From: an uncultured Solirubrobacteraceae bacterium | Lineage (GTDB): Bacteria; Actinomycetota; Thermoleophilia; Solirubrobacterales; Solirubrobacteraceae | Direction: 5' to 3' | Assembly (NCBI GenBank): GCA_963838405.1 | Contig: CAWIRA010000005.1 | Span: 83,071-147,070, forward strand | DNA length: 64,000 nucleotides | Shown here: positions 25,911 through 29,081 of the stretch, in pieces | How positions within the stretch are numbered: the first letter of the stretch is position 1 | Layout: the number at the start of each line of letters is the position of its first letter | Position numbers and translations under genes: made by a program | The notes under the pieces: generated by a model | Databases searched by the model: none | What the model saw: the letters and a program-made list of their open reading frames with translations, nothing else | What the model was told of the DNA's origin: nothing

Positions 25911-26468
25911 ATGGATCGCGATGAACCCAGCGACGGTGAGCTGCTGGCGGCGACGGCTTTGCAGCCTGACGCGTTTGCCGCCTTCTACGACCGTTACGAG
26001 ACCGCCGTCGTCGGCTACTTCACGCGTCGCACCGGCGACCCCGAGGTCGCGGCTGATCTCGCAGCCGAGGTGTTCGCCGCGGCGCTGAGCGCGGCGCATC
26101 GCTACCGCGCCGAGAATCCAACCGCTGCCGGCTGGCTGTTCACGATCGCTCGCAACACGCTCACCAGCAGCCTGCGTCGCGGCAGGGTGGAGGCGCGGGC
26201 GCGACGCCGCGTCGGCATCCGCGACGCGGTCGCCTTCACGAGCGACGAACTCGAGCGCGTGGAGTCCGCCGCCGGCGCGAGCGGTTGGGTGCTCGAGCTA
26301 CTCGAGCGGCTGCCCGCCGACCAGCGCGAGGCGGTTCGCGCGCGCGTCCTCGACGAGCGCACCTATCCGGACATCGCCGGTGAGCTCGAGACATCTGAGC
26401 TGGTCGTCCGCAAGCGCGTCAGCCGAGGCCTTTCGAATCTGCGAGCTGAACTGGAGAACCCGTCATGA
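25911..26468 (+). CDS. ECF RNA polymerase sigma factor
   Basis: AFAAFYDRY, ADLAAEVF, WLFTIARN, region-4 YPDIAGEL...VRKRVSRGL. Confidence 0.92.
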   Translation: MDRDEPSDGELLAATALQPDAFAAFYDRYETAVVGYFTRRTGDPEVAADLAAEVFAAALSAAHRYRAENPTAAGWLFTIARNTLTSSLRRGRVEARARRRVGIRDAVAFTSDELERVESAAGASGWVLELLERLPADQREAVRARVLDERTYPDIAGELETSELVVRKRVSRGLSNLRAELENPS

Positions 26469-27820
26469 CGCTTCTGCCCGAAGTCCGTAGCCAGCTCTAC
26501 GACGCCGCGGGGCGCCGGGCGCGCAGCCCCGGCCGCGGCCTGCTCGGGTGGCTGTCCCGCGCGAACCTGAACGGCCACTGGCCGCGGACGCCGCTGATCG
26601 CGTTCGGTGTCGGGCTCGTGCTCGTCGGCGGTGCGTTCGGCGCCGGGCTGATCGAGCTCGGTGCGCCTGCGAAGCTGCCGTTCTCGCTGTACGGCAACGC
26701 TCAAGAAGGCTCCGGTGGGCTCGTCCCTGGCACGGTGCGGATGCTGCCGATCGCCGCACCCGACCCCGCCGGGGGTCCCAACTGGGGCATGCGCGTGCTC
26801 AGCACCACACGCGGCGAAGGCTGCCTGCAGCTCGGGCGCATCGTCGACGGCAAACTCGGCGCCCTCGGCCAGGACGGCGCCTTCGCCAACGACGGGCGCT
26901 TTCACGAACTGCCCGTCAGCGCCGCCTTCGGTGTCAACACCTGTGCGCTGCTCGACGGCAAGGGTCGCCTGTTCACGAACATCACCGCCGACGAGCGTGC
27001 CGCGAGCGCCTGGATCGGCGTCGGCGGGCGTCTCGGGGGCTGCGTGCCACCGAGCGCCGGGCCCTACGAAAAGGGCCTGCGTCTGACCCGCCAAGAACGC
27101 GAACACGGAGCCAAGCCCGCGGCGATCTGCGCGCAGGCCGACCTGCGCAACATCTACTACGGGCTGCTCGGCCCGCAGGCACAGAGCATCACCTACGTGC
27201 TCGACGGCCAGCGCCACACTCTGCCCACCGTTGGCGCCGACGGCGCCTACATGTTCGTGACGCTCGCGTCGGCCCATCAGCTGCTGAACTTCGCCAACGC
27301 CGGCACTGCCGACATCGTCCCCGTCGACGGGCCGATCAAGGAAATCCACTACCGCGACGGCTCCACCTGCCATCTCACCAGCAAGAGCTGGATCGGCGGC
27401 GTCGACGCCTGCACACCGGCGCTGTCCGAGCCTGTCGGCTACGTCCCCGTCGGCAAAGCGCCGAGCGCCGCCGCGCTCGCCACCCCGATCCACGCACGCG
27501 TGAGCCGCGGGCATCACGGCCGCTACGTGATCACGATCAGCTTCATCGCGCGCGCGCCGGTCACCGACGCCGGTCGCGCCTACAGCATCAAGTGGCGCGA
27601 ACCAGGCATGGCCCCGGGCGCCTACGGCGCCATTAGCACCAACGCCAACATCGCCGCGGGGCAGACCATCACGCGCACGGTCGGCGAATACGGCCCTCGC
27701 GTCCGCGCCGGCGTCGTGCGCGGCGGCGTGACGCTGCGTCAAGCGGGCGGCCCGGGCGGCATCGAAGGCCCCGGCAGCGTCGCCGTGCCGGTGGGCAGCT
27801 TTGCCGTCAGCGTGCCCTGA
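26465..27820 (+). CDS. Membrane-anchored extracytoplasmic protein, probable anti-sigma factor
   Basis: ATGA overlap with sigma; short N-terminus, one TM, ~390-aa external region with six Cys. Confidence 0.65.
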   Translation: MTLLPEVRSQLYDAAGRRARSPGRGLLGWLSRANLNGHWPRTPLIAFGVGLVLVGGAFGAGLIELGAPAKLPFSLYGNAQEGSGGLVPGTVRMLPIAAPDPAGGPNWGMRVLSTTRGEGCLQLGRIVDGKLGALGQDGAFANDGRFHELPVSAAFGVNTCALLDGKGRLFTNITADERAASAWIGVGGRLGGCVPPSAGPYEKGLRLTRQEREHGAKPAAICAQADLRNIYYGLLGPQAQSITYVLDGQRHTLPTVGADGAYMFVTLASAHQLLNFANAGTADIVPVDGPIKEIHYRDGSTCHLTSKSWIGGVDACTPALSEPVGYVPVGKAPSAAALATPIHARVSRGHHGRYVITISFIARAPVTDAGRAYSIKWREPGMAPGAYGAISTNANIAAGQTITRTVGEYGPRVRAGVVRGGVTLRQAGGPGGIEGPGSVAVPVGSFAVSVP

Positions 27821-27846: not shown

Positions 27847-28491
27847 TCAGCCCCAGCTCGCGCCCTCGAGCTCCAGCAGGAAGCGCTTGCGGTCCAGGCC
27901 ACCGCCGTAGCCGCCGAGGTTGCCGCCGCTGCGCAGCACGCGGTGACAGGGCACGACGATCGGGATCGGGTTGGAACCGAGCGCGTTGCCCGCCGCGCGC
28001 GACCCGCGCGGGCTGCCGGCCTCGGCGGCGACCTCCCCATAGGAGAGCACGCCCCCGTAGGGGATCTCATACGTCGCGCCGAGCACCTTGCGCCCGAACG
28101 CGCTCATCAGCGACCAGTCCTGGGGGAGCGCGAAGGCACGGAGGCTGCCGTCGAAGTATTGGTCGAGCTCGCGGCGCACGCCGTCGAACGCCGCCGGCGA
28201 CTGGATGATCCGTGGCGAGATCCGCCGCGCGAGACCGTCGAGCACCGCGTCGACGTCCTCCTCCGGGAAGGCGATCCGCACGAGGCCCTTGCTAGTCGCC
28301 GCCGCCAGCAGCGTCCCGAACGGCGAGTCGACCGGTGCGTAGGTGATGTCGGCGAGGCCTTGGCTCGCGATCCGCGAGCTCACGCGCTCGACGGCGCCGG
28401 CGGCCGACTCGCGCTCACCCGGTCGCGTGCGTCCGCCGCGACGCAGCGCCCGCTCGAGCTTGTCAACGCCTCTGTCTTTCGTGACCGTCAT
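27847..28491 (-). CDS. ogt: Methylated-DNA--protein-cysteine methyltransferase with N-terminal extension
   Basis: VDSPFG, IPYGGVLSYG, RAAGNALGSNP, VPCHRV; ATGA overlap with upstream sigma. Confidence 0.92.
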   Translation of the reverse strand: MTVTKDRGVDKLERALRRGGRTRPGERESAAGAVERVSSRIASQGLADITYAPVDSPFGTLLAAATSKGLVRIAFPEEDVDAVLDGLARRISPRIIQSPAAFDGVRRELDQYFDGSLRAFALPQDWSLMSAFGRKVLGATYEIPYGGVLSYGEVAAEAGSPRGSRAAGNALGSNPIPIVVPCHRVLRSGGNLGGYGGGLDRKRFLLELEGASWG

Positions 28492-29018
28492 GCGCTTACC
28501 ACCTTTCTCAGCTTCGTTAGTCCCTCGTAGAGCGAACGGCGCGCCGCCTCCTCCGAGCAGCCGATCGCGGCCGCGATCTCGCGGTGGGGTAGATCGGCCA
28601 TGTACCTGAGCGCCACCGCTGAGCGCTGGCGCTCGGGGAGCTCGCGCACGGCGCTCCACAACGTCTCCTCAAGCGCTTGCGCGGGGGCGCTGCTGCGACC
28701 GTCCACGGCCGCGACATCCGCCACCGGCAGCGCCCGCCGCGCCCGCGTGCGGTGCGTGTCGATCGCCTTGTTGTGCGCGATCGTCATCACCCACGCGCGC
28801 AGGTTCGATCCTGCTCGCAGCCGCGGATATCCGTCCAGGGCCGCGATGAACGTCTCCTGAAAGCAGTCGTCCGCGTCTGTCGGGCCGACGGAGGACGCCA
28901 GGAAGCGCCACACGCACTCGCTGTAGGTCTCGAGGAAGCGCTGGAAGGGGGGTAGGCCGCCGGCCGTGCTCCTGGTGCGCGGGCCGCTGCGGATCGGACG
29001 GGAAACACCGTAGTTCAC
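28488..29018 (-). CDS. ECF RNA polymerase sigma factor
   Basis: PPFQRFL, ADDCFQETF, AWVMTIAHNK, LPERQRSAV...EIAAAIGCS; start GTG 29018 or ATG 29024. Confidence 0.9.
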   Translation of the reverse strand: MNYGVSRPIRSGPRTRSTAGGLPPFQRFLETYSECVWRFLASSVGPTDADDCFQETFIAALDGYPRLRAGSNLRAWVMTIAHNKAIDTHRTRARRALPVADVAAVDGRSSAPAQALEETLWSAVRELPERQRSAVALRYMADLPHREIAAAIGCSEEAARRSLYEGLTKLRKVVSA

Positions 29019-29026
29019 GCTCATAG

Positions 29027-29051
29027 AACGTGACACAGCCAGCAAACGTGA
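29027..29051 (-). promoter_or_regulatory. Candidate ECF-type promoter of the sigma-ogt operon
   Basis: TCACG-N16-CGTT, 8 nt before GTG 29018. Confidence 0.5.
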
Positions 29052-29081
29052 GATCTGCTCGGGCCGGCCGCCGCTGCCGGC

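Follow-up and report, generated by a model that had tools for sequence, protein, structure and literature searches.

The DNA analyzed here, called the window below, is a stretch of 64,000 nucleotides from the genome of an uncultured Solirubrobacteraceae bacterium (contig CAWIRA010000005.1 of assembly GCA_963838405.1, positions 83,071 to 147,070). On its minus strand it harbors a gene coding for a sigma factor of the extracytoplasmic function (ECF) type, whose end overlaps the start of a gene (ogt) coding for an alkyltransferase with the characters of the O6-alkylguanine-DNA repair enzymes. A candidate ECF-type promoter precedes the sigma gene, and the enzyme carries an additional segment at its N-terminus. 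It is highly probable that the two genes form an autoregulated repair operon. Its features are, in the order of transcription:

29047..29053, minus strand: -35 element (TCTCACG) of the putative ECF-type promoter, at fixed spacing in related loci and in the top match of a position weight matrix (PWM)
29027..29030, minus strand: -10 element (CGTT), separated from the -35 heptamer by 16 nt and from the GTG start by 8 nt
28488..29018, minus strand: ECF sigma gene, 176 amino acids from GTG 29018, with matches to Sigma70_r2, Sigma70_r4_2 and TIGR02937
28499..28506, minus strand: putative ribosome-binding site AAAGGTGG of the alkyltransferase, within the last sigma codons and 7 nt upstream of the enzyme start
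28488..28491, minus strand: ATGA in which the sigma stop and the start of the alkyltransferase overlap, indicating translational coupling; such a 4-nt overlap is widespread
27847..28491, minus strand: alkyltransferase gene, complete, 214 amino acids
28351..28491, minus strand: N-terminal extension of the enzyme (amino acids 1-47), with helix 1, a variable linker and helix 2, outside the solved alkyltransferase folds
28117..28350, minus strand: N-terminal (ribonuclease-like) domain of the enzyme (PF02870, amino acids 50-123), with a predicted local distance difference test (pLDDT) of ~90
27847..28116, minus strand: C-terminal DNA-binding and catalytic domain (PF01035, amino acids 132-211, E 9e-31) and stop codon

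The two genes and their promoter

The sigma factor (176-178 amino acids) has Sigma70_r2 (PF04542) and Sigma70_r4_2 (PF08281) as its only Pfam matches, and the NCBIfam model TIGR02937 (sigma70-ECF) matches it at 90 bits for a cut-off of 42.9. Its composition is that of the ECF (group 4) sigma factors, namely domains 2 and 4 with neither domain 3 nor region 1, and its size lies within their range of 150-200 amino acids. Members of the group share two signatures, PPFQxFLDxHR close to the N-terminus and, within region 2, DADDCFQETF. Region 2 is also weakly similar to the long sigma families TIGR02960 and PRK08241 (NCBIfam), which are related to ECF41. The protein terminates directly past region 4 and has no regulatory extension of its own.

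The coupled enzyme has the two Pfam domains Methyltransf_1N (amino acids 50-123) and DNA_binding_1 (amino acids 132-211). Its Cys182 (codon 27946-27948) lies within the motif PCHRV, of which P181, C182, H183, R184 and V185 are all invariant. The sequence and an AlphaFold2 model built on 19 orthologues indicate an O6-alkylguanine-DNA alkyltransferase, with the predicted two-domain fold, the PCHR cysteine, the arginine finger, the Asn hinge and the Tyr; the best structural matches of the model are M. tuberculosis OGT (Z 9.9 over 131 residues, root-mean-square deviation 3.3) and E. coli Ada-C. It was originally predicted to be a PCHR alkyltransferase devoid of the Ada zinc domain, and indeed neither this domain (PF02805) nor an AraC-type helix-turn-helix (HTH) is found by Pfam in the 214-residue protein, which is therefore not an Ada. 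Its gene is the sole PF01035 gene detected in the genome, which is 93% complete.

The same prediction described the sigma and Ogt genes as coupled through an ATGA, which is confirmed here: the sigma stop TGA at 28488-28490 shares bases with the enzyme ATG at 28489-28491, an arrangement conserved across relatives and in a sample of the whole phylum, and the junction AAGCTGAGAAAGGTGGT...ATGA is kept among relatives. Upstream, on the same strand, a gene coding for a 3-hydroxyacyl-CoA dehydrogenase ends 57-63 nt ahead of the sigma start. The gene downstream of the alkyltransferase (26465-27820, plus strand) is convergent, and the operon therefore consists of two genes. Consistent with a further claim made for this locus, no membrane anti-sigma factor follows the sigma gene, its partner being the alkyltransferase and the next gene the convergent one.

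The motif YCTCAC(G/A)-N16-CGTT, followed after ~8 nt by GTG or ATG, lies upstream of the sigma gene in all 50 distinct related loci with enough flanking DNA (50/50). With CGTT or CGTC as its second element, it recurs in 55 of the 63 loci sampled across the phylum, and in some of the remaining eight it stands ahead of an additional upstream gene. In the window, the elements at 29027-29053 would thus give the sigma gene a promoter of its own with the CGT-type -10 element expected for an ECF sigma factor. The conserved spacing from promoter to start codon suggests that the mRNA is probably leaderless or nearly so. An alternative in-frame start, ATG 29024, lies merely 2 nt past the -10 element and probably stays outside the transcript. 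Because it is too close, and because the distance of GTG 29018 from the -10 element is conserved, GTG 29018 is probably the true start of the sigma gene; the orthologues start at an equivalent GTG or ATG, and this is also the position at which the original prediction had ended the locus.

A scan of the whole 3.8-Mb genome with a PWM derived from these sites ranks the operon promoter first, at 26.8 bits; the next site (21.3 bits) lies inside a gene, and the scan of this genome revealed no other site that is both high-scoring and ahead of a gene. The exact promoter pattern occurs at 3-11 sites per genome in five genomes. It is found 11 times in the genome of the window, for 7 occurrences of a reversed-pattern control; numbers of pattern and control are likewise comparable in two other genomes, and are 4 versus 0 in G335 and 11 versus 0 in G323. 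Taken together, these counts do not stand clearly above the control. From both results, the regulon is probably hardly larger than the operon itself.

The third-best PWM site of the genome lies outside the window (contig C5, ~155704; 20.9 bits) and has a spacing one nucleotide longer. It is intergenic, just ahead of a tRNA-like sequence ending GGTTCGAATCC, and probably arose by chance.

Conservation of the pair and link with alkylation repair

The association of the two genes is very stable. Among the 20 best loci obtained from 40 related genomes, 19 have the sigma gene directly upstream and an enzyme start that overlaps the sigma stop. Searching named genomes with an alignment of the enzyme gave 80 loci, of which 75 are coupled, 72 by a 4-nt overlap; among the other five, four have a sigma gene nearby and one has no upstream DNA. 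These loci span Thermoleophilaceae, Conexibacteraceae, Miltoncostaeaceae and Acidimicrobiia, as well as metagenome-assembled genomes labelled Dormibacterota and Chloroflexota/Limnocylindria. When the search is made with a profile of the sigma factor (cut-off E <= 1e-30), exactly one gene is matched in each of 73 genomes, out of 301 Actinomycetota genomes sampled evenly. This tally takes in seven unpublished genomes (G262, G211, G041, G088, G128, G058, G273), which are excluded from the statements on loci. The alkyltransferase gene is directly downstream of the sigma gene in all 63 published loci fetched (63/63), mostly with a 4-nt overlap, and coordinates place it downstream in G040 and G027 too, that is, in 65 of the 65 published sigma-positive genomes. 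As a control, 20 other alkyltransferases were taken from genomes of this order, and no sigma-like gene was found within ~1.5 kb of them. This adjacency is far beyond chance, and the sigma factor and the alkyltransferase constitute an obligate module. The pair has no other conserved neighbor, the next most frequent one being present in 34 of the 80 loci, and no candidate regulator of the sigma factor other than the enzyme is conserved. Cultured carriers identified by exact look-up are Mycolicibacterium rutilum, M. crocinum, Conexibacter sp. SYSU D00693, Miltoncostaea marina and Phycicoccus spp., and an enzyme belonging to the same clade is known, from its sequence alone, in Tomitella cavernea.

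Sigma-alkyltransferase fusions do exist as database entries (P0123, P0124, P0142, P0176, P0128, P0308) and might suggest that the adjacency is fortuitous or results from gene calling. We rejected them as natural fusions, because they proved to be frameshift artefacts in which sigma region 4 or the C-terminal domain of the enzyme is out of frame, or come from a low-quality single contig. In the window, the reading frame of the alkyltransferase stays open through sigma region 4, extending ~55 codons upstream of the ATG (27847-28659, minus strand), and gene callers or frameshifted assemblies therefore yield spurious sigma-MGMT fusions of 270-420 amino acids. The pair itself keeps its 4-nt overlap and its shared promoter across several phyla, in ~150 loci, which refutes an artefactual or fortuitous origin and leaves it a practically negligible probability.

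Additional genes present in some related operons of Mycobacteriales, among them cultured species, point to alkylation repair. A replicon of Tsukamurella tyrosinosolvens (L195, NZ_LR134464.1, 1395-4408) harbors, in this order, the promoter, a plain alkyltransferase, the sigma factor, the extended alkyltransferase, a 2-oxoglutarate (2OG)-Fe(II) oxygenase and AlkB, and Rhodococcus antarcticus (L196, NZ_CP110616.1, 1850-4082) the sigma factor, the extended alkyltransferase, a 2OG oxygenase and an Ada metal-binding protein; both operons are preceded by a promoter of the type TCAC-N-CGTC. The oxygenase gene overlaps the end of the enzyme gene by 4 nt in six loci, including those of both Mycolicibacterium species. 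In at least five loci, a plain alkyltransferase without extension immediately precedes the sigma gene, and in four of them (L153, L160, L168, L195) it has a promoter of the same type ahead of it. All of these loci retain the extended copy coupled to the sigma gene, which argues that this copy does more than repair. From the presence of AlkB, the 2OG oxygenase, the Ada zinc protein and the second alkyltransferase in related operons, the operon of the window can be assigned, on its gene content, as an alkylation-repair unit.

The locus had been proposed to mediate an Ada-independent alkylation response. The operons of Tsukamurella and Rhodococcus uphold the link to alkylation, but the independence from Ada has to be qualified, given that the same genome harbors elsewhere (contig C4, ~119858-121837, minus strand; L102 205-2184) a gene coding for a 659-amino-acid fusion of Ada_Zn_binding, AraC-type HTH, AlkA_N and HhH-GPD domains. 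This AdaA-AraC-AlkA fusion resembles the mycobacterial AdaA-AlkA and is here unlinked to ogt; no AlkB was found in the genome. What is unusual is that ogt stands apart from the AdaA-AlkA gene and has its own sigma factor.

The N-terminal extension and the possible control of the sigma factor

About 45 extra helical residues had been noted at the N-terminus of the enzyme; there are 47, predicted by AlphaFold2 to form two helices. Helix 1 (amino acids 7-17) has the motif h-E-x-A-L-R and helix 2 (amino acids 26-43) the motif A-x-R-L-x-x-R-A-x-x-E-G-L. The confidence of the model is fair for helix 2 (pLDDT 72-88), moderate for helix 1 and high for the N-terminal domain that follows. All solved alkyltransferase structures align from residue 46-48 of the model on, residue 1 of M. 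tuberculosis OGT corresponding to residue 48. Among 144 non-identical sigma-enzyme pairs, helix 2 is nearly universal and helix 1 is present in ~82%, with a linker of varying length between them. Only enzymes coupled to a sigma factor have the extension. None of the 20 uncoupled alkyltransferases taken from this order carries it, and these proteins start within ~10 residues of the first strand. The extension is also lost together with the sigma factor in one related genome, G023. There (locus L013, G023:C1:1479381-1482884, ~1960-2110), promoter and sigma gene are missing along with the ~47 initial codons of the enzyme, and the enzyme core begins 13 nt past the stop of the 3-hydroxyacyl-CoA dehydrogenase gene.

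The surroundings of the operon also differ in G023, where a thioredoxin reductase gene abuts the alkyltransferase gene. In the window, the convergent gene at 26465-27820 (plus strand) codes for a 451-amino-acid protein with one predicted membrane helix near its N-terminus and no Pfam match, and is itself ATGA-coupled to a second ECF sigma gene (25911-26468, plus strand), of which it probably encodes the anti-sigma factor. This second pair is absent at the corresponding position in G023. The 451-amino-acid protein was considered as an anti-sigma factor of the ogt-coupled sigma and rejected, being coupled to its own sigma and missing at the G023 position.

We infer, in line with the original prediction, that the alkyltransferase binds the sigma factor and releases it on alkylation, and give an even chance to the enzyme being at once the inhibitor of the sigma factor and the damage sensor. 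The ECF sigma factor would transcribe its own leaderless gene and that of the coupled alkyltransferase from the private promoter TCTCACG-N16-CGTT, so that the two proteins would be produced at ~1:1. Unalkylated enzyme would keep the sigma factor inactive via the two extra N-terminal helices, possibly with the participation of the N-terminal domain, an inhibition that would resemble that by short two-helix (class II-like) cytoplasmic anti-sigma factors. Repair of O6-alkylguanine would alkylate Cys182 and leave the enzyme inactivated and destabilized, as is known for the family. The freed sigma factor would then drive the synthesis of more sigma and more enzyme, until unalkylated enzyme is again in excess. 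In sum, a single-use enzyme would be replenished by a refill loop. In its full form, this scheme makes of the single-use repair enzyme a consumable anti-sigma factor that sequesters the sigma via the two-helix extension, with one inhibitor lost per repair, and transcription of both genes would increase in proportion to the enzyme consumed. DNA alkylation would then be sensed in a second manner, unrelated to Ada and found widely among Actinomycetota as well as in some other soil phyla; we put this full form forward tentatively, at slightly less than an even chance.

Two precedents agree with such a loop. The two-helix anti-sigma factor CnrY (~45 residues) binds sigma domain 4 with its helix 1 and domain 2 with its helix 2 (PMC7406223), and alkylation of the active site disturbs the inter-domain contact of alkyltransferases, destabilizes them and leads to their degradation in vivo (PMC4605297). 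The refill loop is favored because a self-activating sigma factor needs an antagonist, for which the coupled enzyme is the sole conserved candidate, and because of these precedents.

Several observations weigh against the sequestration scheme. The extension is unlike any known anti-sigma family in Pfam, and a zinc motif is absent; amino acids 1-47 give no relevant Pfam match even at E <= 10, and an ESM Atlas search with the extension retrieves alkyltransferase clusters only. Its sequence and make-up are variable, helix 1 is missing in ~18% of the pairs, and a few lineages have, in place of helix 2, a short helix and a proline-rich stretch. In the model, helix 2 may pack on the N-terminal domain of the enzyme and be one of its structural elements. 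In a search for covariation in the 144 sigma-enzyme pairs, using mutual information with the average product correction (APC), extension columns are over-represented at the top of the ranking, as they also are in clade-wise shuffles; the null is exceeded by a single pair of columns (sigma 35 / enzyme 34), which is confined to one clade. The loss in G023 is a single event that removed adjacent DNA. Finally, the sigma factor has a conserved cysteine that could be another input. This Cys54 (codon 28863-28865, minus strand, numbered from ATG 29024) lies in region 2, within the motif DADDCFQETF, and is conserved in 92% of the 144 orthologues. The position is occupied by a hydrophobic residue in most ECF sigma factors. 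Another cysteine, Cys156 of region 4 (in GCSEE), is conserved in 67% of the same orthologues, and it is a speculation that the sigma factor senses redox state or alkylation through Cys54 or Cys156.

The conserved cysteine and the placement of helix 2 beside the N-terminal domain, modelled with fair confidence, also fit an explanation that we regard as rather unlikely, in which the enzyme is only the cargo of a sigma factor dedicated to ogt (plus alkB and others in some lineages). The activity of the sigma would be set by its own amount, by proteolysis, by read-through from upstream or by Cys54 chemistry, and the extension, without similarity to anti-sigma domains, would serve the enzyme for stability, DNA binding or oligomerization. 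The operon and promoter evidence requires merely a sigma factor and its target, and sigma factors with a single operon exist, for instance ECF41 (PMC3426412). However, a sigma factor under positive autoregulation would, in the absence of any antagonist, be fixed in the on or the off state; the pair is adjoined by no other conserved regulator, and the sigma lacks a regulatory extension. The cargo explanation also leaves aside that the extension is restricted to loci bearing the sigma gene and disappeared with it in G023, and that lineages adding a plain alkyltransferase to the regulon retain the extended one in the coupled position.

An improbable third possibility is that the enzyme is a co-activator, its alkylated form binding the sigma factor or the holoenzyme and being required for transcription. 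The comparative evidence linking the enzyme to the sigma applies to it equally. Methylated E. coli Ada activates its promoters. The partner domain of ECF41 is both required for activity and inhibitory (PMC3426412). Nevertheless, alkylated alkyltransferases are unstable, which fits a vanishing inhibitor better (PMC4605297), and coupled synthesis at 1:1 is the usual design of a sigma factor and its anti-sigma factor.

Comparison with known systems and significance

As in Ada, or in the mycobacterial AdaA-AlkA and Ogt, a suicide methyl acceptor is here proposed to turn alkylation damage into the transcription of repair genes (of the ogt, alkB and alkA types). The N-terminal Zn(Cys)4 domain of Ada senses methylphosphotriesters, and the protein is an AraC-type activator working with sigma-70. 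By contrast, the enzyme of the window has no zinc or HTH module, an ECF sigma takes the place of the activator, and consumption of the O6-alkylguanine acceptor itself is proposed as the signal.

A soluble cytoplasmic anti-sigma factor is also known from the RsrA-SigR system, where cysteine chemistry frees an autoregulated ECF sigma factor. RsrA belongs to the class I or zinc-binding anti-sigma (ZAS) proteins (~80-100 amino acids, four helices, often HxxxCxxC, PF13490), from which the extension differs by its 47 amino acids, its lack of any Cys or His and its lack of a Pfam match; the HxxxCxxC motif was not seen in the enzyme N-terminal sequences at 63 actinobacterial loci. Fusions of a ZAS domain to an alkyltransferase were likewise absent from these 63 loci and from the best 150 of 3,360 profile hits. 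The reactive cysteine would here be the catalytic one, ~140 residues away. In predicted size and shape, the extension is closer to the class II anti-sigma factors of the CnrY/NepR type, which have about two helices in ~40-50 residues; those of the model are two as well, joined by a variable linker. It shares no sequence similarity with CnrY or NepR, and is fused to a soluble enzyme instead of a membrane anchor or a partner-switching system.

The ogt-coupled sigma factor has in common with ECF41 the type of promoter and a regulon that would be a single operon. ECF41 members recognize a promoter with a TCAC-containing -35 element, a 16-nt spacer and a CGT(C/T) -10 element, control the neighboring operon alone and have no separate anti-sigma gene (Wecke et al. 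2012, PMC3426412). They differ by a large fused C-terminal domain of the SnoaL/NTF2-like type, whereas the sigma factor described here has no more than domains 2 and 4, the protein that may regulate it being encoded separately.

A pairing of this kind is already listed, as ECF122, and is therefore not new. A review summarizing Casas-Pastor et al. 2021 describes ECF122 as an ECF group for which it lists no mechanism, with '6-O-methylguanine DNA methyltransferases' conserved nearby and the actinobacterium Cellulomonas sp. Root930 as representative (PMC8999054). Both ECF122 and the present group have an ECF sigma factor without recognizable anti-sigma and a conserved methyltransferase neighbor, found in 65 of 65 published loci of our survey. 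This comparison relies on the description in the review, which names the neighbor only, and includes neither the overlap, the extension, the promoter, the size of the regulon nor the mechanism. No mention of ECF122 was found in the main text of the 2021 ECF reclassification, and a literature search found no paper studying the sigma-alkyltransferase pair. The present analysis adds the conserved promoter, the probable start codon and a regulon that is probably very small. It also delimits the extension and its specificity to coupled enzymes, and provides natural control variants, examples of operons enlarged by alkylation-repair genes, and cultivable carriers.

The module is present in about one quarter of the sampled Actinomycetota genomes, including those of cultured Mycolicibacterium, Conexibacter, Tsukamurella and Rhodococcus. 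If the proposed loop is true, a large part of the Actinomycetota would depart from the textbook logic of Ada, the amount of unspent suicide enzyme being itself the signal. It would also account for the catalogued group ECF122 and add a new type of soluble anti-sigma factor. The sigma factor, the enzyme and the ~30-nt promoter would then represent a compact, orthogonal and damage-responsive switch for synthetic biology.

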